Of a DNA stretch of 64,000 bases, positions 532 to 34,552 are shown piece after piece. Within the stretch, counting starts at the first letter, position 1. Every line of letters begins with the position of its first letter. The notes beneath the pieces were generated by a model, which saw nothing but the letters and a program-made list of their open reading frames with translations, did not search any database and had not been told where the DNA came from. The position numbers were made by a program, and so were the translations under genes. This stretch comes from Escherichia coli (GTDB lineage: Bacteria > Pseudomonadota > Gammaproteobacteria > Enterobacterales > Enterobacteriaceae), in NCBI RefSeq assembly GCF_044324785.1, contig NZ_CP172127.1. One strand, 5' to 3'.

Positions 532-945
532 ATGATACCGGATCGGGAAAGAACCACAGGTTCTCTTTTTGAGCGTATGGAAGCCTCACCGGCCAGAAAC
601 TGGCAGGGAAGCAGTATTCATGCGCTCAGGCAGTCCATTCGCCAGAACCTGCGAAACATTCTTAATACCCGGTCCGGTAGTTGCCGGGGTGCGCCTGAAC
701 TGGGCATTGATGAACCGGAAGGGGCTGAAAACTTCCGCGAATCAATGAGTCTGGCCATCGCGCAATGTATAGAACGCTATGAACCCCGGATCTCACACGC
801 TGAAGTGCAGGCAGTGGTTTCATCCGCCACCAACCCGCTGGATATGACGTTTCATATTACAGCCTGGGTGACATTTAACGAAACGCATGAAGTGCTTGAA
901 TTTGATATGGCACCGAATGGCAGCCAACATTATCGGGTGGACTGA
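532..945 (+). CDS. tssE: T6SS baseplate subunit TssE (gp25-like)
   Basis: 137 aa, typical TssE size; position between tssC and tssF. Confidence 0.85.
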   Translation: MIPDRERTTGSLFERMEASPARNWQGSSIHALRQSIRQNLRNILNTRSGSCRGAPELGIDEPEGAENFRESMSLAIAQCIERYEPRISHAEVQAVVSSATNPLDMTFHITAWVTFNETHEVLEFDMAPNGSQHYRVD

Positions 946-948
946 CAG

Positions 949-2799
949 ATGGAATTTGAAGAACGCTATTTCCGGGAAGAACTCGATTACCTGCGCCAGC
1001 TCAGCAAGCTGCTGGCAACGGAAAAACCCCATCTTGCCCGCTTCCTGGCCGAAAAAGATGCGGATCCGGATATTGAACGCCTGCTGGAAGGCGTGGCTTT
1101 TCTTACCGGCAATCTCCGCCAGAAAATTGAGGATGAATTCCCAGAACTGACGCACGGGCTTATTAAGATGCTCTGGCCTAATTACCTGCGTCCGGTTCCG
1201 GCAATGACCCTTATTGAATATACGCCGGATATGGATAAGTCTTCTGTGCCGGTGTTAATCCCCCGTAATGAGCAGCTTACAACCAACGCCGGGGAAATCA
1301 GAGTCGATGAAGTGCTGCCCTCCGATGCTAAAAAGGAGGAGCCGCCTCCCTGTACCTTCACCCTCTGCCGGGATATCTGGCTGCTGCCCGTTCGCCTGGA
1401 GCAGATTGAAAACCGCAGTACGACCCGTAATGGTGTTATCAACATCACCTTTTCGGTCGCACCGGGAACGGACTTCCGCACGCTGGATCTGAACAAACTT
1501 CGCTTCTGGCTCGGCAATGACGACAACTATACCCGTGACCAGCTTTATTTATGGTTCTGTGAATACTTGCAGGGTGCCGACCTGACTGTGGGTGAACAGC
1601 ATATTCGCCTGCCTGAGTTTATGCTGAAAGCTGTCGGTTTTGAGCCGCAGGATGCCATGCTGCCTTGGCCGAAAAACGTCCACAGCGGCTACCGGATCCT
1701 TCAGGAGTATTTCTGTTACCCGGATGCGTTTCTCTTTTTTGATCTTTGTGGTTGCCCGGCGTTGCCTGACGGATTGCAGGGTGAATCCTTTACCCTACAA
1801 CTGCGTTTTTCGCGCCCATTGCCCGTGGACATCCGGTTGCGCCGCGACTCCCTGCGCCTGTATTGCGCGCCTGCCATTAATTTATTTATCCACCATGCAG
1901 AAGCCATCACGCTGAACAACCGGCGGGCAGACTATCCGCTGGTTCCCAGCCGCCATTATCCGGAACATTACGATGTCTTTTCCGTTAACGGCGTGATAAG
2001 CCAGGTGCAGGATATGTTCAGGAAAAAAGATCTGGGGCGTCCTGTTTCGACGCAGGCCGCGCGCCAGTGGCCTGCCTTTGAAAGTTTCAGCCATCAGATG
2101 GAATACAGCCGGAAGCGGGAAGTGGTGTACTGGCATCACCGGACCAAAACATCCCTGTTCCATCGCGGCTTTGATCATACCCTTGCTTTTATACATGCTG
2201 ATGGCAGTTATCCGTCAGACGAATCGCTGCTCAGTAATGAAGTGGTTTCGGTATCGCTGACCTGTACCAACCGTGAGCTTCCGTCACAAATTCGTTCCGG
2301 CGATATCACCGGCACAACCGGTAAAAATGCGGCTGTTGCTTCATTTCGCAACATTACCCGCCCGACGCAACCGCTCTGGCCGGTCATTGATGGCAGCCTG
2401 CACTGGTCCCTGCTCTCCGCCATGAACCTGAATTATCTGTCATTACTGGATACGGACGCGCTGAAGCAGGTCATCGCCAACTTTGATCGCCACGCAATCC
2501 ATCATCCGCAGACGGCGCGGCTGTCACAACAAAAGCTGGATGCCATTGAGCGTCTGGAGACCCGCCCCGTTGATCGCCTGTTTACGGGTATTCCCGTCCG
2601 GGGGCTGGCCTCCACGCTGTATCTGCACCCGGAGCCGTTTGTCTGTGAAGGGGAAATGTATCTGCTCGGTACGGTGCTTTCGCATTTTCTGTCGCTGTAC
2701 GCCAGCGTTAACTCATTCCACATGCTGACCGTTGTGAACACAGAAAGCCAGGAGACATGGAAATGGACGGAAAGAACCGGGCAGCATCCTCTTATCTGA
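949..2799 (+). CDS. tssF: T6SS baseplate subunit TssF
   Basis: 616 aa; size and position (after tssE, before tssG) match TssF/VasA. Confidence 0.88.
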   Translation: MEFEERYFREELDYLRQLSKLLATEKPHLARFLAEKDADPDIERLLEGVAFLTGNLRQKIEDEFPELTHGLIKMLWPNYLRPVPAMTLIEYTPDMDKSSVPVLIPRNEQLTTNAGEIRVDEVLPSDAKKEEPPPCTFTLCRDIWLLPVRLEQIENRSTTRNGVINITFSVAPGTDFRTLDLNKLRFWLGNDDNYTRDQLYLWFCEYLQGADLTVGEQHIRLPEFMLKAVGFEPQDAMLPWPKNVHSGYRILQEYFCYPDAFLFFDLCGCPALPDGLQGESFTLQLRFSRPLPVDIRLRRDSLRLYCAPAINLFIHHAEAITLNNRRADYPLVPSRHYPEHYDVFSVNGVISQVQDMFRKKDLGRPVSTQAARQWPAFESFSHQMEYSRKREVVYWHHRTKTSLFHRGFDHTLAFIHADGSYPSDESLLSNEVVSVSLTCTNRELPSQIRSGDITGTTGKNAAVASFRNITRPTQPLWPVIDGSLHWSLLSAMNLNYLSLLDTDALKQVIANFDRHAIHHPQTARLSQQKLDAIERLETRPVDRLFTGIPVRGLASTLYLHPEPFVCEGEMYLLGTVLSHFLSLYASVNSFHMLTVVNTESQETWKWTERTGQHPLI

Positions 2800-3845
2800 G
2801 TCCGGGAAATCCCCCGGCAGATAAAGAGCAGAATGATCCGCTGGTACAGGTTTTTCATAACGCCTGCTCTTACAATTTTTTTGCGATGGCGGAGCTGTTG
2901 CACCGCCTGGCACAGGGTGAAAAGGGGACGCCGGAATTATCCCTGCGCGACGATCCGGCACAGGAAACCCTGCGTTTCAGCGCCGATGCCAGCCTTGCGT
3001 TTCCCCTGAGTGATATCAGTGCGCTGAAACGGGATACGTCAGGGGCATTCAGGATGACCACCACCTTTATGGGGTTACAGGGGAGCCAGTCGCCTCTCCC
3101 CGGTTATTACCTCGATCACCTGGCCTGGAAAGCGGTACATGAACAAAGTCCGGTAGGTGATTTTCTGGATATGTTCAGCCACCGCTTGACCCAGTTTGTC
3201 TGGCATATCTGGCGTAAGTACCGCTATCACATCAGTTTTCGTAACGGCGGTGTGGATGCGTTCTCGCAGCGCATGTACTCCCTTGTTGGGCTGGGCCACC
3301 GCCAGCTTCGCGATAAGCTGGCGATTAATCACAGCAAAATGCTGGCGTATTCCGGGATCCTGGCAAATCCGGGACGATCCCCGGAAATAATCTGCGGCCT
3401 GGTGTCCCACTGCTTTGATTTGTCAGACGTGACGCTGCAAAACTGGCAACGTCGCAAGGTGGATATTGAACCGGATCAGCAAAACAGTCTGGGGAGCTAT
3501 TCACTTAAAAATGGCGAAAAACTGGCGGGAAGATCGGTACTGGGCAACTTTGTTCTGGGTACACGGGTGCCCGATCTCAGCGGAAAATTCCAGCTCAGTA
3601 TTACCAGTCTGACCCGAAAACAGTTCCTCTCTTTTCTGCCGTCCGGCGAAAACTTCCTGCCACTGACGATGTTTGTGTCCTTCATCCTGCGCGATCAGCT
3701 TGCCTGGGACTTACATCTGGGGCTGGCGCCGGAGCAGGTGGGCGCAATGCGCCTGGGCGATAACAAAAGTGCGCTGCTGGGCTGGACCAGCTTCCTCGGC
3801 ACACCGGAAGAACGACCCTCAGTCACCATCAGGGTACGGTCGTAA
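2757..3845 (+). CDS. tssG: T6SS baseplate subunit TssG
   Basis: 362 aa; overlaps the tssF 3' end by 43 nt, consistent with coupling. Exact start uncertain (ATGs at 2757 and 2763). Confidence 0.82.
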   Translation: MEMDGKNRAASSYLSPGNPPADKEQNDPLVQVFHNACSYNFFAMAELLHRLAQGEKGTPELSLRDDPAQETLRFSADASLAFPLSDISALKRDTSGAFRMTTTFMGLQGSQSPLPGYYLDHLAWKAVHEQSPVGDFLDMFSHRLTQFVWHIWRKYRYHISFRNGGVDAFSQRMYSLVGLGHRQLRDKLAINHSKMLAYSGILANPGRSPEIICGLVSHCFDLSDVTLQNWQRRKVDIEPDQQNSLGSYSLKNGEKLAGRSVLGNFVLGTRVPDLSGKFQLSITSLTRKQFLSFLPSGENFLPLTMFVSFILRDQLAWDLHLGLAPEQVGAMRLGDNKSALLGWTSFLGTPEERPSVTIRVRS

Positions 3846-3869
3846 ATTATGATAATCACGGAGCAGAAT

Positions 3870-5150
3870 ATGCCGGAAGAGAAACTACAGACGCTTTCAT
3901 TGCAGGTCATTAACGGCAGTGAGCTGGAAAGCGGGCGGGCGGCGCGCTGTCTGTTCACGCAGCAGGGACATGTCGGCCATGGCCCCGAATGCCACTGGTC
4001 GGTACAGGATCGTCAGCAGAGCATTCCGGCTCAGGCTTTTACCGTTATCCTGCACGATGGCACATTTTGTCTGCGCCCGCAGACGGCACAACTGTGGCTG
4101 AACCAGGCAAAAGTCACAGCAATATCAGACCTGATACAGCTGCGCCAGGGCGATGAGATCCAGATAGGGCGTCTGATGGTGAGGGTTCATCTGAACCGGG
4201 GAGATATCCCCCATTACGATGAGGAAATGGCCACTCCCGAAACCATCGTCACCAATCGCGATATGCTCACGGATACCCTGCTGTCAACGGAGGGTGCGCC
4301 ACACTATCCGGGAATGACTCACCGGCATCAGCTTGCAGACACCGTGGTAAACGGTTTTTCTGCCGATCCACTCCAGGCACTTCAGTCCGAAAGCCTGATT
4401 ACCACGGGCGATCCGCTTTCAGGCATTGCGGCTGTCCGGCCATCGGCACCGCTGTCCGATCCGGCAAGTAATGGGGGGATCAATACTCCGTTTATGGATC
4501 TGCCGCCCATTTATGCCAGCCCCGGCGATCGTAATGATGACTTCTCTGTGGCAGAAATGGCGCAACGCCACCTTGCGGTCACCCCCTTACTGCGCGGTCT
4601 CGGCGGCTCGCTTACCGTGAGCAATTCTGACGATGCGGATGATTTTCTGGAAGAGGCCGGACGCACGTTACAGGCCGCAATAAAAGGTCTGCTCGATTTG
4701 CAGCAACAGCGTAACAGCCTCTCAGACAAACATTTGCGCCCGCTGGAAGATAACCCGCTGCGCCTGAACATGGATTACGCCACCGCGCTCGACGTGATGT
4801 TTGCCGAAGGTAAAAGTCCGGTACATCTGGCGGCTCCCGCCGCTGTCAGTGAAAGCCTGCGTAATGTCCGCCACCACGAAGAAGCTAACCGGGCAGCGAT
4901 TGTGGAGTCACTTCGTGTCCTGCTTGACGCTTTCTCACCACAAAATCTGCTGCGCCGCTTTGTGCAGTACCGCCGCAGCCATGAACTGCGCCAGCCGCTG
5001 GATGATGCCGGAGCATGGCAAATGTACAGCCATTATTACGAAGAACTGGCCTCCGATCGCCAGCAGGGGTTTGAGATGCTGTTTAACGAGGTCTACGCCC
5101 AGGTCTATGACCGGGTGCTTCGTGAAAAACAGCGGGAGCCGGAAGCATGA
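3870..5150 (+). CDS. tagH: T6SS FHA-domain protein TagH (Fha/VasC-like)
   Basis: N-terminal region has an FHA-like pattern; GGAG lies just upstream of the ATG at 3870 (longest ORF starts at 3849); C-terminal region is Ser/Pro/Asp-rich. Confidence 0.8.
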   Translation: MPEEKLQTLSLQVINGSELESGRAARCLFTQQGHVGHGPECHWSVQDRQQSIPAQAFTVILHDGTFCLRPQTAQLWLNQAKVTAISDLIQLRQGDEIQIGRLMVRVHLNRGDIPHYDEEMATPETIVTNRDMLTDTLLSTEGAPHYPGMTHRHQLADTVVNGFSADPLQALQSESLITTGDPLSGIAAVRPSAPLSDPASNGGINTPFMDLPPIYASPGDRNDDFSVAEMAQRHLAVTPLLRGLGGSLTVSNSDDADDFLEEAGRTLQAAIKGLLDLQQQRNSLSDKHLRPLEDNPLRLNMDYATALDVMFAEGKSPVHLAAPAAVSESLRNVRHHEEANRAAIVESLRVLLDAFSPQNLLRRFVQYRRSHELRQPLDDAGAWQMYSHYYEELASDRQQGFEMLFNEVYAQVYDRVLREKQREPEA

Positions 5151-5671
5151 ACAGGAAGGCGTTTCTGGCCTGCGTGCTGATGTGCGTCATATTAACCGGC
5201 TGCGAAACGGCGAAAAAAATCAGCGAGGTGATCAAAAACCCGGATATCCAGGTCGGGAGCCTGAAGGAGCAACCTTCGGAAATAACCGTCACCCTGCTGA
5301 CCGAACCGGACACCAATACCAATGCGGAGGGTGAATCAGCCGCCGTGGATGTGCAACTGGTGTACCTGACTGACGACTCAAAATTGCTGGCAGCCGACTA
5401 TGACCAGATAGCCAGTACGCCGCTACCGGATGTGTTGGGTAAAAACTATATCGACCACCAGGATTTCAACCTGTTGCCGGACACCATCAAAACCCTGCCG
5501 CCGGTAAAGCTGGATGAGAAAACGCAGTTTATTGGTGTCGTGGCCTATTTCTCCGATGACCAGGCCACTGAATGGAAACAAATCGAGACGGTGGAAGGAA
5601 CCGGCCACCATTACCGCCTGCTGGTGCATGTACGTCAAAGCAGCATCGAAATGAAAAAAGAGGATGAATAA
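5147..5671 (+). CDS. tssJ: T6SS outer-membrane lipoprotein TssJ
   Basis: 174 aa; signal peptide with lipobox (MNRKAFLACVLMCVILTGC); ATGA overlap with tagH stop. Confidence 0.88.
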   Translation: MNRKAFLACVLMCVILTGCETAKKISEVIKNPDIQVGSLKEQPSEITVTLLTEPDTNTNAEGESAAVDVQLVYLTDDSKLLAADYDQIASTPLPDVLGKNYIDHQDFNLLPDTIKTLPPVKLDEKTQFIGVVAYFSDDQATEWKQIETVEGTGHHYRLLVHVRQSSIEMKKEDE

Positions 5672-5673
5672 TT

Positions 5674-7005
5674 ATGGCAACCACCCGCAACAAGGTGATG
5701 TGGCAGGAAGGGATGCTGATGCGCCCACACCATTTCCAGCAACAGCAGCGTTACAACGACTACCTGGATAACCAGCGCTTCCGGGCCATGAATGATTTAT
5801 CCTGGGGATTTACCGAACTCACCCTCAACAATGAACTGCTGGCGCAGGGTAAGATCATGATTGACAGCGCGTCAGGCACACTGCCCGACGGCACCGTCTT
5901 TTCTATCCCCGACCAGGACGCACTGCCCGATCCGCTGCACCCGCAACATTTTCCGGACGAAAGAAGCCGCAATATCTACCTCGCTCTGCCGGTCGCCAGT
6001 GATGTGAGAAATGAAATCAGCGACGGGCGGCGAATCGGGCGTTACCGGCTGAATTATGCCGATGTCCGGGATCTGCATTCAGAAGAAGGTGACGCGCGAA
6101 CATTGACGCTGGGTCAACTGACGCCGCGCATTATGAGCGGTGCAGAAGATATGAGCGCCTATATTACGCTCCCGCTTTGCCGTATCAGCGATCGCCATGC
6201 CGACGGCTCACTGACGCTGGATGACGATTTTATCCCCTCCTGCCAGAATATTCAGGTCAGTAAGAAACTGCGTGTTTATCTCAAAGAGGTACAGGGGGCC
6301 ATTGGCGGACGGGCAAGCGATCTGGCAAACCGCATTGGCTCTCCGGCGCAGAGCGGCATCGCGGATGTGGCGGAATTTATGATGTTGCAGTTACTTAACC
6401 GTAACCAGACCCGGTTTACCCATCGCGCTCGTCGATCCCAGCTCCACCCGGAAGATTTCTACCTTGATCTTGCCGGGTTGCTGGGTGAACTGATGACCTT
6501 TACCGAGCCGTCGCGCCTGCCCTGCCCGCTTGATGTGTATGATCATCATGACCTGACCAAAACATTTAAAACGCTGTTACCGGAAGTCAAACGGGCGCTG
6601 CATACCGTACTGTCGCCAAGAGCCGTCAATCTGCCGCTACATCTGCGTGACGGTATCTGGCAGGCCGATATTCATGACACAGAACTGCTGCAATCTGCCA
6701 CCTTTGTCCTGGCCGTGGCGGCAAACATGCCGGTCGATCAGATCCAGCGCCAGTTTATCCAGCAGTCGAAAATTTCCTCGCCGGAAAAAATCCGCAATAT
6801 GGTCAGTGTGCAGATACCCGGCATTCCATTGCGTGCCCTGATGGTGGCTCCCCGCCAGCTTCCTTACCATTCCGGGTTCAGCTATTTCGAACTCGACAAG
6901 AGCGGACAGGCCTGGACAGAAATGGCTGCCGCCGGGGCCGTTGCACTGCATGTATCCGGCAGTTTCCCGGATCTGAACATGCAACTGTGGGCGATAAGAG
7001 GGTAA
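5674..7005 (+). CDS. tssK: T6SS baseplate/membrane-complex connector TssK
   Basis: 443 aa; N-terminus VMWQEGMLMRPHHFQQQQRY resembles the conserved TssK N-terminus; position after tssJ. Confidence 0.88.
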   Translation: MATTRNKVMWQEGMLMRPHHFQQQQRYNDYLDNQRFRAMNDLSWGFTELTLNNELLAQGKIMIDSASGTLPDGTVFSIPDQDALPDPLHPQHFPDERSRNIYLALPVASDVRNEISDGRRIGRYRLNYADVRDLHSEEGDARTLTLGQLTPRIMSGAEDMSAYITLPLCRISDRHADGSLTLDDDFIPSCQNIQVSKKLRVYLKEVQGAIGGRASDLANRIGSPAQSGIADVAEFMMLQLLNRNQTRFTHRARRSQLHPEDFYLDLAGLLGELMTFTEPSRLPCPLDVYDHHDLTKTFKTLLPEVKRALHTVLSPRAVNLPLHLRDGIWQADIHDTELLQSATFVLAVAANMPVDQIQRQFIQQSKISSPEKIRNMVSVQIPGIPLRALMVAPRQLPYHSGFSYFELDKSGQAWTEMAAAGAVALHVSGSFPDLNMQLWAIRG

Positions 7006-7009
7006 GACG

Positions 7010-7771
7010 ATGGATGAGGGGTCACTGTCTCTGCCACCATTTACCGGATACGACGAAAAAAGCCAGCGCGACTATCATCTCGCGCTTCGTGGCAACAGCC
7101 TGAATCCGATGATCGACGCAGCCACGCCGCTCCTCGGTATGGTGATGCGCCTTTCAACCATGAACAGCCAGACGATGCCGGAGCATCTTTTTGCTCAGGT
7201 GGTGACGGATGTTCAGGCCGTGGAGCAACTGCTTCAGGAGCAGGGCTACGAACCGGGCGTGATTATCTCGTTTCGCTACATCCTCTGCACGTTTATTGAT
7301 GAAGCGGCGCTCGGTAACGGCTGGTCGAACAAGAACGAGTGGATCAAGCAGTCATTGCTGGTCCATTTCCACAACGAAGCCTGGGGTGGCGAGAAGGTTT
7401 TCATCCTGCTGGAGCGCCTGATCCGTGAACCCAAACGTTACCAAGATCTGCTGGAATTTCTCTGGCTCTGTTTTTCTCTGGGATTTCGCGGGCGCTACAA
7501 AGTGGCAGCACAGGATCAGGGGGAATTTGAGCAGATCTACCGCCGCCTGTACCACGTCCTGCATAAACTGCGCGGCGATGCCCCTTTCCCGCTGTTACAC
7601 CAGGACAAAAAAACCCAGGGCGGGCGTTATCAGCTCATCAGTCGCCTGACCATTAAACATATTTTTTGTGGTGGCGTTGTCGTGCTGGCGTTGTTTTACC
7701 TGTTCTATCTGTTGCGGCTGGACAGCCAGACGCAGGACATCCTGCACCAGCTAAACAAATTACTTCGATAA
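7010..7771 (+). CDS. tssL: T6SS inner-membrane protein TssL (DotU family, no OmpA-like extension)
   Basis: 253 aa; C-terminal hydrophobic helix (FCGGVVVLALFYLFYLL); position between tssK and clpV. Confidence 0.85.
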   Translation: MDEGSLSLPPFTGYDEKSQRDYHLALRGNSLNPMIDAATPLLGMVMRLSTMNSQTMPEHLFAQVVTDVQAVEQLLQEQGYEPGVIISFRYILCTFIDEAALGNGWSNKNEWIKQSLLVHFHNEAWGGEKVFILLERLIREPKRYQDLLEFLWLCFSLGFRGRYKVAAQDQGEFEQIYRRLYHVLHKLRGDAPFPLLHQDKKTQGGRYQLISRLTIKHIFCGGVVVLALFYLFYLLRLDSQTQDILHQLNKLLR

Positions 7772-7779
7772 GGACGTTT

Positions 7780-17652: not shown

Positions 17653-18132
17653 ATGGCGAATTTAATTTATTTAACACTAAATGGTGATAATCAAGGGCTC
17701 ATTTCAAGTGGTTGTTCATCACAACCATCCATTGGAAATAAAGCTCAAACAGCACACATTGATCAAATTATGATTTATGAATTCATGCATGGATTAAATC
17801 GAGATCAAAACGTCAACCATCATCATTTGACAATAAAAAAACCTATAGATAAAGCATCACCCTTATTAGGTAAAGCAATTTGCGACAATGAATTATTGAC
17901 ATGTGATTTTTCCTTTTATCGTACAAATAAATTTGGAATTAATGAACTGTACTATAAAATCAAATTAACTGGAGCAAAGATAAGCGACATTCATGTCTCT
18001 ATATCACATATTGTTGTTGATAACAGCGTTCAACCCGAAGAGTCAGTTTCTTTCAGTTATGAGTCAATTATATGGGAGCATTGTTCCGCTGGCACTAGTG
18101 CATACAGTTTATGGGAAGATCGTCTTCTTTAA
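17653..18132 (+). CDS. hcp: Hcp (TssD) family protein, divergent and AT-rich
   Basis: 159 aa; N-terminal IYLTLNGDNQG and C-terminal SVSFSYESIIWEH fit the Hcp pattern; AAGGAG RBS 8 nt upstream; much lower GC than the upstream core. Confidence 0.8.
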   Translation: MANLIYLTLNGDNQGLISSGCSSQPSIGNKAQTAHIDQIMIYEFMHGLNRDQNVNHHHLTIKKPIDKASPLLGKAICDNELLTCDFSFYRTNKFGINELYYKIKLTGAKISDIHVSISHIVVDNSVQPEESVSFSYESIIWEHCSAGTSAYSLWEDRLL

Positions 18133-18152
18133 AAATATCTGGGATTATTATA

Positions 18153-19049
18153 ATGGCTAACAATATTTTACACTCTTCAACATCAGACAGTGAAAGCAAA
18201 AATACAAGCACTGACAGTACGTTATTTAATGAAAAATTCCCATTTCGATTAAGGCAAGATTTCGCATCAAGAATAACAGAAGATGAAAGTGATTTTTTTA
18301 AATGGAAAAAAATAAGAGAGTTGGCAATTGTGAGCAATCATAAAGAATGGAATAAATATGACTTATTAATTTCAAAATCTGTTAATGAAATCAACATTCA
18401 TTTGTCCAGCACTCCATACTTTCAGCCGTTGGATTGGTATATAATAAAAGCCATGCTCTGGACTGAAAACGATGCGGCAAATACTTCTCAGTGGAATGGT
18501 TATCCATTACAAATTGGTCGTTTTCGGAAAGATAAAGCGATGCCTGCTTTAATCTCTGGTGAAAAATCCACAGCCCTTGTTACCCCACCACAATGGAGAA
18601 ACAAAGCATTCAATGGGTTAAAAGATCCAGAAAGAAATTACTGGGCAAAAGAACAAATAACTGGCTCTCCAGAAGAGAATGTCAAAGCAGCAATTACTTA
18701 CTTAATGATGAAACTTTCTAATACAAAGGAAGAATCAACTATCGATCAATATGACTCAACTCTATATAGCGCCATTGTCCAAAAAGGCGATTTGGCTGAC
18801 AACATCAGAAAAGAGAGAAAAACGACCATACCTAACTTAACGAAAAACAACCCTGGAAAAAATCTCGATAAAATACACCCGGGAGATATTTTATATTATC
18901 AAAAAGCATCCATGAAAGTAATAATTACTGGATGGAAACCTATCACAATAAAAAATGTAGCGATGAATTATAATGGTGGTGGAGATCCCAAGTATGCAAT
19001 AAAACTTCAGTTCGTTTATACATTGCTCACAAAAAACAGAGTGTTATGA
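18153..19049 (+). CDS. Hypothetical protein; candidate T6SS effector (possible peptidoglycan glycosidase)
   Basis: 298 aa from ATG 18153 (alternative ATG 18111); no signal peptide, no Cys; AT-rich; directly downstream of hcp and coupled to a downstream signal-peptide protein. E…GxxQ…AxxYL motif spacing weakly resembles GH23-type lysozymes. Confidence 0.6.
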   Translation: MANNILHSSTSDSESKNTSTDSTLFNEKFPFRLRQDFASRITEDESDFFKWKKIRELAIVSNHKEWNKYDLLISKSVNEINIHLSSTPYFQPLDWYIIKAMLWTENDAANTSQWNGYPLQIGRFRKDKAMPALISGEKSTALVTPPQWRNKAFNGLKDPERNYWAKEQITGSPEENVKAAITYLMMKLSNTKEESTIDQYDSTLYSAIVQKGDLADNIRKERKTTIPNLTKNNPGKNLDKIHPGDILYYQKASMKVIITGWKPITIKNVAMNYNGGGDPKYAIKLQFVYTLLTKNRVL

Positions 19050-19501
19050 GAATGGGAAAAATAACAATTATTCTACTGCTTACATTCTCATGTACAAAAG
19101 GTCTGGCATTTGACATTTCCATGTCTAAAGAATGTAGTGGCGTTGATGAACTTGAATTTGTTGATTGTGTTAAAAACTCATTTATTATGAGCACTATTAC
19201 ACTTAAAAAAGCAGAAGCAAATATAAAAGAGAAAATTAAAAAATGGAATAACGATGAGGACGAAGCAATAAGAAAAGAAGCAGTTATTTCTTTAAAAAGA
19301 CTAGAATCTTCTAATCGGGAATTTATACGTTACAGATTTGCTCAATGCTCTTTTGCTCTAACCTGGGGGGCCAGAGTAGGACGCCTGGCATTCTCTCGAC
19401 TATATCCATGCTATACTGAGTTAAACAAAATAAGAGCCATGCAACTAAACAATGCTTACATTTCAGATTTTCAAAATCCAGATGAGATATCCAGCAAATG
19501 A
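19046..19501 (+). CDS. Small periplasmic protein, candidate immunity protein (DUF1311/LprI-like pattern)
   Basis: 151 aa; ATGA overlap with the upstream gene; cleavable signal peptide (ITIILLLTFSCTKGLA); four Cys and a KKW…RYRFAQC…G…YPCYTELNKIR pattern reminiscent of LprI-type lysozyme inhibitors. Confidence 0.6.
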   Translation: MRMGKITIILLLTFSCTKGLAFDISMSKECSGVDELEFVDCVKNSFIMSTITLKKAEANIKEKIKKWNNDEDEAIRKEAVISLKRLESSNREFIRYRFAQCSFALTWGARVGRLAFSRLYPCYTELNKIRAMQLNNAYISDFQNPDEISSK

Positions 19502-19854
19502 TTATTATAAAATTAAGATTAACATTACTATTTATACTGGCCACAATTACATATTCAGTACAATCAGACGAATTCGATGATCAAACCACTTACACGCAAT
19601 ACCGTTATTTTTCCACAGCCATACCAGAAGATATACGTAGATTTATGTTCTACGTAGATTTGTGCTTTGTAGATTTAGCATTCGATATCGAAACTGACTC
19701 AATGACAGCTAAAAATGATATTATTAATGAATGTACCCCATTAAAAGAAAGAAACAAAACATTAAAAGAAAAATATAAAAAAGATGAAGAGATAATAGCA
19801 ATTCTTTCCATTGCAGATGATACCATTTTAATTTATGAAGAATTAAAAAAATAA
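19498..19854 (+). CDS. Small secreted/membrane protein, possible second immunity or orphan immunity gene
   Basis: 118 aa; ATGA overlap with the previous gene; N-terminal hydrophobic signal (LRLTLLFILATITYSVQS); AT-rich; Lys/Glu-rich C-terminus. Confidence 0.5.
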   Translation: MIIIKLRLTLLFILATITYSVQSDEFDDQTTYTQYRYFSTAIPEDIRRFMFYVDLCFVDLAFDIETDSMTAKNDIINECTPLKERNKTLKEKYKKDEEIIAILSIADDTILIYEELKK

Positions 19855-19978
19855 CTCACATGCAATTCACTGGCAATATATATTATAATTTTATAAAAAA
19901 TCATATTTACATTATAGAAATACTCAGCTCCTGTTTGCTGCCCGCCCTAAACTACAGGCGGCAGCATAACAATAACGA

Positions 19979-20779
19979 TTACTGGAATCGACTCACCAAG
20001 TCTTTCACCATTGATACATATGTTTTTTGTTTCAAATTAAACAGTTGCACTTCCGTAACATGGTCATTTGATAGTTCTTTATTGCTCGTTTTTGTTATTC
20101 CAGCCGGCGGAAAAATTACTCTCGATTCATAATTCACCGGCGACCAGGTAGCCCACTCACCTGTTGCCACATCCACCAGCGTGAAACGTACCAGGTAGCG
20201 CAGGGAGATAGCGTCAGTGAGTTTTTCATTTTTATAGTCGGACCATACTGTTGATTTCAGCACAGAGTCATATTTTCCTGTCTGCAACGTATCATGGTAA
20301 ACAATAATCGCTTTCTGATGCCCTTTCGCAGCCACAAAACGCAATGCCTGCATCCAGTTCATATTTTCAGCACTGGCAACATCCTCGTTCTCATTTTTAT
20401 CTTTATTTTTGTTACAAGTCAGAGGCTTTTGCCTGTCCGGGATACCAGAGAATGTGGAAACAGTATAATATTTTCTCATCTCCTCCTGCATAATGGTCTC
20501 CGGTGCGCGACTGCCAGACTGAACAAGTATTACAGGAGAACTGAGGGGCACACGAAACTCATCTCCTTCAAGCGCAGCTTGAATATCCTCCTCGGATACA
20601 GCCAGAGTGGTTTCATTACCGAATAAATCTTTGTCTGTCAGTTGTGGGGGAGTGTTTTTATTAATATTACTTTGTGTAACTTGAGCTTTTTTCTTTTTTT
20701 CATCAATAGGAGATTCAGAGGCACATCCTGCAAGCAGCGAGAATAACACACATATGCAACAAACCTTTTTTGAATTCAT
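19979..20779 (-). CDS. yafT: Lipoprotein YafT
   Basis: 266 aa; lipobox (LLAGC); lies next to tRNA-Asp aspV as yafT does in E. coli. Confidence 0.8.
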
Positions 20780-21105: not shown

Positions 21106-21182
21106 TGGCGGAACGGACGGGACTCGAACCCGCGACCCCCTGCGTGACAGGCAGGTATTCTAACCGACTGAACTACCGCTCC
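21106..21182 (-). tRNA. aspV: tRNA-Asp (GUC)
   Basis: Reverse complement matches the canonical E. coli tRNA-Asp over 77 nt (GGAGCGGTAGTTCAGTCGGTTAGAATACCTGCCTGTCACGCAGGGGGTCGCGGGTTCGAGTCCCGTCCGTTCCGCCA). Confidence 0.95.
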
Positions 21183-23327: not shown

Positions 23328-24086
<759 letters not shown>

Positions 24087-24157
24087 TAAAACTTTCTTGT
24101 CATCGGCTCCGTTCGCCGTTATGATCGGTCGTCTTTTAAGCAACTATTGACACACAC

Positions 24158-25516
24158 ATGAAGGCAAAAGCGATATTACTCGCCTCTGTCCTGCTCGTGG
24201 GTTGCCAGAGTACCGGCAACGTTCAACAGCACGCACAGAGCCTTTCTGCAGCTGGTCAAGGGGAAGCAGCAAAGTTTACAAGTCAGGCACGATGGATGGA
24301 CGATGGGACGTCTATCGCGCCAGATGGTGACTTGTGGGCTTTCATTGGCGACGAGCTAAAGATGGGAATTCCGGAAAATGACCGGATTCGCGAACAGAAA
24401 CAGAAATATTTACGCAATAAGAGCTATCTCCACGATGTAACTTTACGGGCAGAGCCGTATATGTACTGGATAGCCGGGCAAGTTAAAAAACGTAACATGC
24501 CTATGGAACTGGTACTACTACCCATAGTGGAGAGCGCTTTTGATCCTCACGCAACGTCTGGCGCCAATGCCGCAGGCATCTGGCAGATCATTCCGAGCAC
24601 GGGGCGCAATTATGGTTTGAAACAGACCCGCAATTATGACGCGCGTCGCGATGTTGTTGCTTCAACAACTGCCGCGCTGAACATGATGCAGCGTCTGAAC
24701 AAGATGTTTGACGGCGACTGGCTTCTGACCGTAGCGGCTTATAACAGCGGCGAAGGTCGGGTCATGAAGGCAATTAAAACGAACAAAGCGCGTGGGAAAT
24801 CCACGGACTTCTGGTCGTTACCGTTGCCGCAGGAAACGAAGCAGTACGTGCCTAAAATGCTGGCATTGAGTGATATTCTCAAAAACAGCAAGCGTTATGG
24901 CGTACGTCTGCCAACGACCGATGAAAGCCGTGCTCTGGCGCGTGTGCACCTGAGCAGCCCAGTTGAAATGGCGAAGGTTGCAGATATGGCGGGGATTTCC
25001 GTCAGCAAGCTGAAGACATTCAACGCTGGCGTGAAAGGCTCCACGCTGGGCGCAAGTGGTCCGCAGTACGTGATGGTGCCAAAGAAGCATGCAGATCAAC
25101 TGCGTGAATCTCTGGCTTCGGGCGAAATTGCTGCTGTACAGTCGACGCTGGTTGCCGACAATACGCCGCTTAACAGCCGTGTTTACACCGTACGCTCTGG
25201 CGACACGCTTTCAAGTATCGCTTCACGTCTCGGCGTTAGCACCAAAGATTTGCAGCAGTGGAACAAACTGCGCGGATCTAAGCTGAAGCCAGGCCAAAGC
25301 TTGACGATTGGCGCAGGTAGTAGCGCACAGCGGTTGGCAAACAACAGCGATAGCATTACGTATCGTGTGCGCAAAGGCGATTCGCTTTCAAGCATTGCTA
25401 AACGCCACGGCGTGAACATCAAAGATGTGATGCGCTGGAACAGCGATACTGCGAATCTGCAACCAGGCGATAAGCTGACGTTGTTTGTGAAAAACAACAA
25501 CATGCCAGATTCCTGA
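24158..25516 (+). CDS. mltD: Membrane-bound lytic murein transglycosylase D
   Basis: 452 aa; lipoprotein signal (LLVGC); transglycosylase core followed by C-terminal LysM-like repeats. Confidence 0.93.
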   Translation: MKAKAILLASVLLVGCQSTGNVQQHAQSLSAAGQGEAAKFTSQARWMDDGTSIAPDGDLWAFIGDELKMGIPENDRIREQKQKYLRNKSYLHDVTLRAEPYMYWIAGQVKKRNMPMELVLLPIVESAFDPHATSGANAAGIWQIIPSTGRNYGLKQTRNYDARRDVVASTTAALNMMQRLNKMFDGDWLLTVAAYNSGEGRVMKAIKTNKARGKSTDFWSLPLPQETKQYVPKMLALSDILKNSKRYGVRLPTTDESRALARVHLSSPVEMAKVADMAGISVSKLKTFNAGVKGSTLGASGPQYVMVPKKHADQLRESLASGEIAAVQSTLVADNTPLNSRVYTVRSGDTLSSIASRLGVSTKDLQQWNKLRGSKLKPGQSLTIGAGSSAQRLANNSDSITYRVRKGDSLSSIAKRHGVNIKDVMRWNSDTANLQPGDKLTLFVKNNNMPDS

Positions 25517-29328: not shown

Positions 29329-29405
29329 TGGCGGAACGGACGGGACTCGAACCCGCGACCCCCTGCGTGACAGGCAGGTATTCTAACCGACTGAACTACC
29401 GCTCC
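29329..29405 (-). tRNA. aspU: tRNA-Asp (GUC), distal tRNA of rrnH
   Basis: 77 nt identical to the aspV copy at 21106-21182. Confidence 0.95.
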
Positions 29406-29457
29406 ACCGAATTCTTTTACAACCACCGGTTTTATGACCGACTTACTGCTTAATTTG

Positions 29458-29577
29458 ATGCCTGGCAGTTCCCTACTCTCGCATGGGGAGACCCCACACT
29501 ACCATCGGCGCTACGGCGTTTCACTTCTGAGTTCGGCATGGGGTCAGGTGGGACCACCGCGCTACGGCCGCCAGGCA
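29458..29577 (-). rRNA. rrfH: 5S ribosomal RNA
   Basis: 120 nt; reverse complement matches E. coli 5S rRNA (TGCCTGGCGGCCGTAGCGCGGTGGTCCCACCTGACCCCATGCC…). Confidence 0.97.
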
Positions 29578-29668
29578 AATTCTGTTTATCAGACCGCTTC
29601 TGCGTTCTGATTTAATCTGTATCAGGCTGAAAATCTTCTCTCATCCGCCAAAACATCTTCGGCGTTGT

Positions 29669-32573
<2,905 letters not shown>

Positions 32574-32747
32574 TCACAACCCGAAGATGTTTCACTTCAG
32601 AGTTGCGAAAATTTGAGAGACTCACGAACAACTTTCGTTGTTCAGTGTTTCAATTTTCAGCTTGATCCAGATTTTTAAAGAGCAAAACTTCGCAGTGAAC
32701 CTTTGCAGGTACACTCTGAAGTATTTTTTATTTAATCACTACAGAGA

Positions 32748-32823
32748 TGGTGGAGCTATGCGGGATCGAACCGCAGACCTCCTGCGTGCAAAGCAGGCGC
32801 TCTCCCAGCTGAGCTATAGCCCC
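32748..32823 (-). tRNA. alaV: tRNA-Ala (UGC), rrn spacer tRNA
   Basis: Reverse complement matches GGGGCTATAGCTCAGCTGGGAGAGCGCCTGCTTTGCACGCAGGAGGTCTGCGGTTCGATCCCGCATAGCTCCACCA. Confidence 0.95.
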
Positions 32824-32865
32824 ATAACATGTAGTTAAAACCTCTTCAAATTTGCGGTGCAAATT

Positions 32866-32942
<77 letters not shown>

Positions 32943-33010
32943 GTAGAGGTTTTACTGCTCATTTTCATCAGACAATCTGTGTGAGCACTACAAAGAACGC
33001 TTCTTTAAGG

Positions 33011-34552
<1,542 letters not shown>

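Follow-up and report, generated by a model that had tools for sequence, protein, structure and literature searches.

The terminal hcp gene of the T6SS-2 island

The stretch of DNA analysed here (hereafter the window) covers 64,000 nucleotides of an Escherichia coli genome (contig NZ_CP172127.1). Its 5' 17.6 kb hold the principal operon of a type VI secretion system (T6SS) of the E. coli T6SS-2 type, with the core genes in the order tssC (partial), tssE, tssF, tssG, tagH, tssJ, tssK, tssL, clpV, vasI, tssA, tssM and vasL. The core is followed by an hcp gene, the subject of this report, then by three small AT-rich genes, yafT on the opposite strand and a tRNA-Asp gene (Table 1), beyond which lie dnaQ, rnhA, gloB, mltD and an rRNA operon. 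The hcp gene, a putative effector gene directly 3' of it and two candidate immunity genes next to the effector share one strand. The gaps are 26 bp between vasL and hcp and 20 bp between hcp and the effector gene, while the effector and the two immunity genes overlap by 4 bp each. A scan for promoters and terminators from 17.0 to 21.2 kb gave no excess over shuffled sequences and no promoter of its own for hcp.

The hcp open reading frame (ORF) encodes 159 residues and belongs to the Hcp/TssD family: TIGR03344 (TssD) matches residues 1-156 with 197.9 bits against a cut-off of 58.9, Pfam T6SS_HCP (PF05638) matches with E = 3e-23, and the relatives in the PDB are Hcp3 (3he1), 6a2v and 5mxn. The product is a bare Hcp domain without extension, and thus not an Hcp-ET, in which a toxin is fused to the C-terminus. 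The closest complete genome, that of E. coli N3 (99.7% identity across 22 kb), shows what the island holds beyond the 5' end of the window, namely tssB and an hcp-vgrG-rhs operon that is transcribed divergently. The T6SS-2 island therefore holds two hcp genes, which in the naming of Ma et al. 2018 (PMC5874247) are hcp2B (the vgrG-linked gene) and hcp2A (the terminal gene); in EDL933 the terminal gene is called z0247. The vgrG-linked Hcp is encoded by a GC-rich gene and is 28% identical to the terminal Hcp, whose L2,3 loop is 9 residues shorter than that of the core Hcp.

The first-pass annotation of this DNA had described hcp as being as AT-rich as the genes downstream, unlike the core from tssC to vasL, and as divergent from the common E. 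coli Hcp sequences. Both observations were borne out. The GC content of hcp is 0.329, with 0.41, 0.34 and 0.23 at the three codon positions (third-position value, GC3, 0.231). The effector and the two immunity genes have a GC of 0.275-0.344 and a GC3 of 0.21-0.30, as against 0.52-0.63 and 0.51-0.73 for the twelve core genes from tssE to vasL. The lowest GC3 found in 3,788 in-frame windows of 160 codons within core genes was 0.512, which places hcp at z = -7.7. Since the first and second codon positions are shifted too, the amino-acid composition of Hcp is affected as well. The comparison of codon usage that the annotation had proposed gave the outcome it predicted. In a leave-one-out test of synonymous usage, expressed as a log2 likelihood ratio per codon for cargo versus core, hcp scored +0.54, the cargo genes +0.44 to +0.60 and every core gene -0.28 to -0.82. 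The compositional step lies about 40 bp before the vasL stop codon, the GC content going from 0.58 (17400-17499) through 0.50 (17500-17599) to 0.26 (17600-17699). As to divergence, the window Hcp shares 28% identity with the vgrG-linked Hcp, 55% with the commonest terminal Hcp of E. coli and 68% with the terminal Hcp of UTI89 and other extraintestinal pathogenic E. coli.

Exchange of the AT-rich block in E. coli

The slot between vasL and yafT at the T6SS-2 island, marked by tRNA-Asp, was surveyed in 5,426 complete E. coli genomes and is occupied by three alleles. Allele A1, that of the window, consists of hcp (GC3 0.23), a lysozyme-like/LysM toxin gene and two immunity genes, and was found in 363 genomes. 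Allele B (2,549 genomes) consists of an AT-rich hcp (GC3 0.32) whose product is 55% identical to the window Hcp, a gene for a 304-residue protein with C-terminal transmembrane helices (a putative membrane toxin), and ykfM; it is partly kept in a further ~540 genomes, where some of the matches are ykfM and flanks only. In the third allele (580 genomes), hcp is followed directly by yafT without cargo, and this gene, as represented by UTI89, has a core-like composition (GC3 0.61) and a product 68% identical to the window Hcp. The 363 genomes that carry the A1 hcp all have it at 99% identity or more, and the genomes that hold at least 80% of the 4.1-kb region also number 363: the linkage between this hcp and its cargo is complete.

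Adjoining genes at this slot have very different histories. Between the window and the type-B strain DA33133, VasL shares 97% amino-acid identity with a synonymous divergence (dS) of 0.125, whereas Hcp shares 55% identity, with a nonsynonymous divergence (dN) of 0.34 and dS at saturation; the two cargoes are unrelated. In the alignment, the left breakpoint lies at ~17586, directly after the conserved WLLLKN codons of vasL. DNA identity to the alternative allele drops from 0.95 to 0.47 in the vasL tail, and the tail past the WLLLKN motif is different in every lineage; the last 13 vasL codons therefore belong to the cassette. The right breakpoint lies at ~20125 within the 3' end of yafT, where GC content rises from 0.30 (20000-20099) to 0.55 (20100-20199) and the YafT C-termini of the two alleles are homologous but diverged. 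With one breakpoint in the vasL tail and the other in the yafT 3' end, hcp is wholly within the exchanged segment. These data show that an AT-rich block of about 2.5 kb (about 17587-20125), of which hcp is the first gene, is swapped whole as one allele in E. coli. Since the diverged yafT end travels with the block, we infer homologous recombination with an orthologous locus rather than the action of a self-mobile element. Among 5.8 billion proteins, no Hcp from outside E. coli is closer than 72% identity to the window Hcp. The nearest effector found in the search for a donor lineage is 38-42% identical to that of the window, and the two results indicate that the donor is unsampled.

Two observations concern allele B. 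In E. coli 23CRST038 (L013, 6854-8402; L numbers denote individual loci or contigs) an IS903B within the type-B hcp splits the gene and leaves the toxin gene and ykfM intact. YkfM (L001, 3804-4283), the product of a K-12 gene with no assigned function, is a multi-pass membrane protein encoded right after the type-B toxin. It looks like the orphaned immunity gene of a T6SS toxin, left over in E. coli K-12 from the commonest allele.

Table 1. Features around the terminal hcp gene, in window coordinates
Feature	Position	Strand	Basis
vasL, conserved GC-rich part; last core gene, left flank of the module	16277..17586	+	VasL/ImpA_N annotation; GC3 0.63
vasL tail, AT-rich and cassette-specific, last 13 codons (TIPTIKKDIEFQ, then stop); left breakpoint	17587..17626	+	identity drop to other allele
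terminal (auxiliary) hcp/tssD, allele A1; position of hcp2A (avian pathogenic E. coli, APEC) and z0247 (EDL933)	17653..18132	+	TIGR03344, PF05638
putative effector, 298 residues, lysozyme-like/lytic-transglycosylase-like with inserted LysM, candidate catalytic Glu105	18153..19049	+	
immunity candidate 1, DUF1311/LprI-type, lysozyme-inhibitor-like, hydrophobic N-terminus	19046..19501	+	RefSeq name; Pfam LprI on homologues
immunity candidate 2, 118 residues, hydrophobic N-terminus, no family match	19498..19854	+	conserved synteny; GC3 0.21
yafT, diverged AT-rich 3' end, last ~47 codons; right breakpoint	19979..20125	-	homology to other allele returns at ~20125
yafT, conserved part, right flank	20126..20779	-	96% DNA identity to DA33133; Pfam YafT on homologues
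tRNA-Asp (aspV), chromosomal landmark of the T6SS-2 island	21106..21182	-	ARAGORN and Rfam

Some further features of the window and its island were noted. An imperfect GC-rich hairpin (GCTGCCCGCC...GGCGGCAGC) at 19937-19965, between the convergent immunity 2 gene and yafT, was not called by the terminator scan because no T-run follows it, and a 90-residue ORF that runs across it (19860-20132) is probably spurious. The T6SS-2 core (532-17586) is atypical in the opposite direction from the cassette, with a GC of 0.52-0.63 (clpV and vasI 0.60-0.63) against 0.519 for the whole window. Outside the window, at 10646-11485 of the N3 locus (L004), the genes past the Rhs core are AT-rich (GC 0.34-0.40, Rhs core 0.63) so that this island has a second toxin/immunity tip of low GC, at its opposite end. 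The gloB gene (23331-24086) has a GC of 0.40 and a GC3 of 0.35, far below its neighbours, and 23611-24160 is among just three stretches in the 64 kb with a 480-bp GC of 0.36 or less. Finally, a full rRNA operon on the minus strand (29332-34552; 16S, two tRNAs, 23S, 5S, one tRNA) accounts for an ORF-poor stretch with strongly negative GC skew.

The effector and its immunity proteins

Neither the 298-residue effector nor the type-B toxin matches any Pfam or NCBIfam family. In the same two databases the effector showed no PAAR, VgrG or MIX-type domain or other known T6SS marker, and no adaptor gene was found in the cassette, which besides hcp and the effector encodes just two small exported proteins. 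The effector has no signal peptide and no cysteine, and its family comprises 364 representatives at E <= 0.001. An AlphaFold model built with 73 homologues reached a mean predicted local distance difference test score (pLDDT) of 88.7 and is confident except for the first ~45 residues. It predicts a lysozyme-like/lytic-transglycosylase fold with a conserved catalytic glutamate and a LysM domain inserted within the catalytic domain; Glu105, invariant among the homologues, is the candidate catalytic residue. Among the fold matches is the Hcp1-dependent effector Tse3, to which sequence identity is 11%. A profile search of the PDB gave EmtA as the sole match (E = 0.16), and Foldseek matched the LysM part only. 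In its modelled fold, its conserved glutamate and its predicted periplasmic immunity, the effector would thus resemble Tge-type glycoside hydrolase effectors and lytic transglycosylases. It differs from them in that Pfam, NCBIfam and the PDB profile search place it in no described Tge or SLT sequence family, in the insertion of LysM in the catalytic domain, and in an immunity protein of the LprI/DUF1311 type. None of 150 effector homologues begins with an Hcp domain, so this search yielded no Rosetta-stone fusion of Hcp and toxin.

Immunity candidate 1 is named by RefSeq as a member of the lysozyme inhibitor LprI family (DUF1311). Immunity candidate 2 is recognised by synteny, as its position behind candidate 1 is kept in all loci with a window-type effector except the truncated Salmonella contig L005. 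The signature is that of a predicted periplasm-acting antibacterial T6SS toxin with exported immunity. The polar, predicted-disordered N-terminus of the effector (18153-18290, residues 1-45) recurs in T6SS-2-linked effectors of 293-306 residues and is a candidate loading tag; homologues of ~240 residues outside the enterobacterial T6SS-2 context are without this extension.

The effector gene is intact in the window and has been inactivated independently in two other strains at the same spot, corresponding to window position 18305 (codon ~51). In O157:H7 TW14359 (L002) one additional A in an A-run causes a frameshift, and in N3 (L004) TGG has changed to TGA, giving a stop at W51; the immunity genes, like hcp, are intact in both. 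Among member sequences of the effector family in the protein database, about 574 are intact and about 514 truncated. The O157:H7 locus also has one A fewer in the A-run of the vasL tail (17604-17610), which shifts the vasL frame so that the annotated coding sequence overlaps hcp, and its tssM is likewise annotated as frameshifted. In the window, tssM, tssA, vasL and the effector gene all read through.

Hcp and cargo across genera

A profile of the terminal Hcps, run against one genome per species, retrieved 44 loci, and metagenome look-ups added more. Cargo was classified by homology as belonging to the window-type, lysozyme-like/LysM effector family (effA) or to the type-B toxin family (effB); an automated ORF rule for sorting loci with and without cargo misclassified L015 and L059 and was abandoned. 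In ten core-attached loci with effA or effB cargo (E. coli, Salmonella, Yokenella, Citrobacter, Atlantibacter, Superficieibacter and further contigs), hcp has a GC3 of 0.23-0.35 and the adjoining vasL one of 0.55-0.70. In ten core-attached loci without cargo, the GC3 of hcp is 0.47-0.62. A regression over 21 core-attached loci, with VasL identity as covariate, assigned an additional Hcp identity of 0.12 to membership in the same cargo class (permutation p about 0.0005). The effB family also occurs in Rahnella and Buttiauxella, in orphan hcp-toxin-immunity islands that are surrounded by housekeeping genes and have no T6SS core closer than 7 kb. The Hcps of these islands and the E. coli type-B Hcp group together in one clade (75% neighbour-joining bootstrap; 55% and 80% in two re-analyses). 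A compositional artefact was considered for this clade and is unlikely, because it stays at 80% with Dayhoff recoding and spans GC3 values of 0.32-0.52. No other evidence for joint movement of an hcp and its cargo family is as direct as this clade.

The effA family splits into three effector-immunity subfamilies of 35-43% mutual identity: A1 (the window), A2 (Salmonella, an Escherichia-like contig, Citrobacter youngae and L059) and A3 (Yokenella, Atlantibacter and Superficieibacter). Effector and immunity identities are tightly correlated among effA loci (r = 0.96). In L015, L016 and L059/L060, a single effector gene is followed by two tandem copies of the immunity pair, the kind of array left by successive effector replacement. 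Orphan Hcps of Photorhabdus and Xenorhabdus (L051, L052, L053, L055, L056) carry a C-terminal extension of 85-105 residues, for a total of 243-264, and are followed by AT-rich ORFs of 259-406 residues and small genes, possibly their own cargo.

We consider it somewhat probable that hcp heads an exchangeable AT-rich hcp-effector-immunity block and that the terminal Hcp is a minor Hcp that loads the adjoining effector. According to this reading, the block would be exchanged by homologous recombination with orthologous loci of other enterobacteria, and the vgrG-linked Hcp, whose gene is GC-rich, would supply most of the T6SS tube. The terminal Hcp would chaperone or stabilise the adjoining effector and load it; the effector, with no PAAR, VgrG or adaptor partner, would then attack the cell wall of prey in the periplasm, and the two exported immunity proteins would protect the producer and its kin. 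The specificity of Hcp would lie at the level of the effector family, not of the individual effector allele. The two halves of this reading differ in strength. That hcp belongs to the cassette is firmly established for E. coli. That the terminal Hcp might be a carrier specialised for this one toxin is plausible, and the comparison across genera weakens the idea.

Several findings speak against the minor-Hcp reading. Among effA loci, Hcp identity goes with that of VasL (r = 0.75) rather than with that of the effector (r = 0.30). Yokenella and C. youngae (L014 and L015) share 94% identity in Hcp and 93% in VasL, with similar dS for the two genes, and only 36% in the effector and 25% in the immunity protein; toxin-immunity pairs therefore swap behind an unchanged, still AT-rich hcp. 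Other AT-rich cargo lies behind an hcp of intermediate GC in L025, L028 and L037. The window Hcp is about equidistant (68-72%) from all other terminal Hcps, and a clade uniting it with the effA-linked Hcps received just 19-20% bootstrap, with amino-acid or Dayhoff-6 distances, and is not claimed here. With 298 residues (~34 kDa) the effector exceeds most lumen cargo, and a 243-residue homologue with an LprI immunity gene has no hcp nearby. Lastly, in O157:H7 and N3 the effector is dead and hcp intact, so hcp is kept there without working cargo. Given the unchanged hcp behind swapped toxins and the weak clustering, the type of Hcp goes at best with a family of cargo and not with a particular toxin. 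These findings disfavour a strict one-Hcp-one-toxin code, and any specificity that fits the data would be for a toxin family at most. The proposal of the first-pass annotation, that hcp transfers together with its cargo as a specialised carrier, inside whose ring the effector would then be expected to bind, is upheld in its first part within E. coli, where vasL and hcp diverge so differently and linkage is 363 of 363, and also by the GC-rich state of cargo-less hcp genes and the grouping of type-B Hcp with orphan islands. Its second part is the one that the exchange of toxins behind constant hcp genes in other genera calls into question. Co-inheritance of hcp with cargo is thus seen within E. 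coli and in the type-B/orphan islands, while at effA loci elsewhere Hcp follows VasL.

The main rival holds that hcp is a hitch-hiking anchor, which travels because it lies between the breakpoints or because its conserved 5' half supplies homology, has no cargo-specific function, and leaves the effector to exit by some other path such as VgrG or the major Hcp. The swapping of effector-immunity pairs behind a constant hcp in other genera and the retention of hcp where the effector is dead fit this view. So does the DNA identity between the two E. coli hcp alleles, which reaches 0.60-0.72 in the 5' half and falls to 0.47-0.58 in the 3' part, and a preprint reports that contacts between Hcp and cargo are dispersed and tolerant of variation (10.64898/2026.06.15.732508). 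However, hcp does not contain the left breakpoint, which is in the vasL tail upstream of it; there is a correlation between Hcp clade and cargo family even in orphan islands that have no core flank for recombination; and the cassette encodes no PAAR, adaptor or VgrG partner. We regard the anchor as a possible explanation, though rather an improbable one. Another reading is that the terminal Hcp is itself secreted to act on host cells, whether as effector or as virulence factor, which has been reported for Hcp2A/Hcp1 in APEC and neonatal meningitis E. coli (NMEC), and that the toxin and immunity genes are functionally unrelated neighbours. This would accord with the literature on host interactions of Hcp2a and with Zhou et al. 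2012, as summarised in PMC6730261. Those studies, however, used the GC-rich, cargo-less allele, whose Hcp is 68% identical, and the window allele invariably comes with a toxin of antibacterial type and its exported immunity proteins, which makes a host-directed role highly improbable here.

A different objection is that hcp has long stood at the end of the operon and has been inherited vertically, and that its low GC is kept by selection, for example through H-NS silencing or expression tuning, and says nothing about transfer. Hcp and VasL divergence are indeed commensurate among effA loci of different genera (r = 0.75; similar dS), and H-NS represses hcp2A and T6SS-2 in APEC and enterohaemorrhagic E. 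coli (PMC5874247). Moreover, the GC3 of hcp is about 0.30-0.35 in both L005 and L014 despite a dS of 2.8; since low GC3 persists across synonymous saturation, the AT-richness of hcp is a stable state, and not simply a mark of recent import. Against a resident gene stand the histories of the adjoining vasL and hcp, which differ more than 10-fold within E. coli, the sharing of one slot by three alleles of which one is GC-rich and cargo-less, and the relationship of type-B Hcp to orphan islands. We therefore judge it unlikely that hcp is simply a resident. A further reading, which we hold to be doubtful, links two claims: the terminal Hcp would carry a loading code at the level of the fold family, and the AT-richness of hcp, whose GC3 of ~0.3 persists through saturation beside an operon at ~0.6, would be actively maintained. 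One Hcp clade would then serve lysozyme-like/LysM toxins and another the membrane toxin, with toxin-immunity alleles freely interchangeable within a family. Carrier and toxin would be silenced together (for example by H-NS) or tuned together, as a unit apart from the machine, and the boundary at the end of vasL would be a selected boundary of a regulatory module instead of a scar of transfer.

Relation to known systems and meaning

For the reading of the terminal Hcp as a minor, cargo-loading Hcp, several known systems offer comparisons. As reported by Silverman et al. 2013, Hcp1 of the Pseudomonas aeruginosa H1-T6SS carries Tse1, Tse2, Tse3 and Tse4 as lumen cargo, and the loading proposed here would parallel that of Tse3. 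Lumen loading by Hcp has a further precedent in the preprint cited above. Unlike in P. aeruginosa, where one major Hcp serves several unlinked effectors, a second, divergent Hcp is encoded here directly 5' of the effector. In the T6SS of Bacteroidales, minor Hcps co-segregate with their cognate effectors (PMC13213661; PMC13035841); their phylogeny clusters by effector, and the proposal is that they serve to recognise and load effectors as particles separate from the Hcp that forms most of the tube (PMC13213661). The E. coli locus resembles these in having an extra hcp in a variable region by effector-immunity cassettes. It differs in belonging to a proteobacterial T6SS with a single extra Hcp, as opposed to T6SS-iii with five hcp genes and Hcp1-Hcp2 heterohexamers, and in that specificity is at most at family level, effector-immunity pairs being swapped behind an unchanged hcp.

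Vibrio cholerae has auxiliary clusters and effector modules of low GC that can be exchanged (Unterweger 2014; Kirchberger 2017; both summarised in PMC6730261, which notes no study of this kind for E. coli). The similarities include effector-immunity modules of lower GC than the core, recombination from strain to strain and extra immunity arrays (L015, L016, L059). In V. cholerae, however, hcp and vgrG are conserved anchors and only the genes behind them change, whereas in E. coli T6SS-2 hcp itself is replaced. The hcp/vgrG 'effector islands' of Pantoea and Erwinia have variable putative effector genes 3' of hcp (PMC3235180), and the orphan hcp-toxin-immunity islands of Rahnella, Buttiauxella, Photorhabdus and Xenorhabdus are comparable to them; the present module, by contrast, is attached to the core operon at its distal end, and a single species holds several forms of it. 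Hcp2A of APEC and NMEC T6SS-2, which is reported to be secreted, is 68% identical to the window Hcp, belongs to the same Hcp subfamily (type IIa) and is likewise encoded by the last gene of its operon, vipA2-hcp2A (PMC5874247). Unlike the window gene, that allele is GC-rich (GC3 0.61) and followed by yafT without cargo, and its product has been studied as a host-interacting protein and not as a carrier.

Low-GC exchangeable effector modules, hcp-associated effector islands, Hcp as a lumen chaperone and minor Hcps that co-segregate with effectors are thus already established. In the literature we found no description of the E. coli slot, its three alleles, the toxin family or the link to YkfM, including under ykfM or yafT together with T6SS. 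As the arrangement is known from other bacteria, the finding is informative but not surprising. It also carries a caution: cassettes of this kind can stay GC-poor over the long term, so that their low GC need not point to recent import. If the proposed role of the terminal Hcp is correct, it would provide a concrete, testable pair of Hcp and cargo in E. coli T6SS-2, whose antibacterial effectors are poorly defined. It would extend to the z0247 locus of O157:H7, where the toxin gene downstream, which is frameshifted there, has so far gone unnoticed. One species with three alleles of a tube protein, two accompanied by different toxins and one core-like without any, would then amount to a natural swap experiment on how Hcp chooses its cargo.

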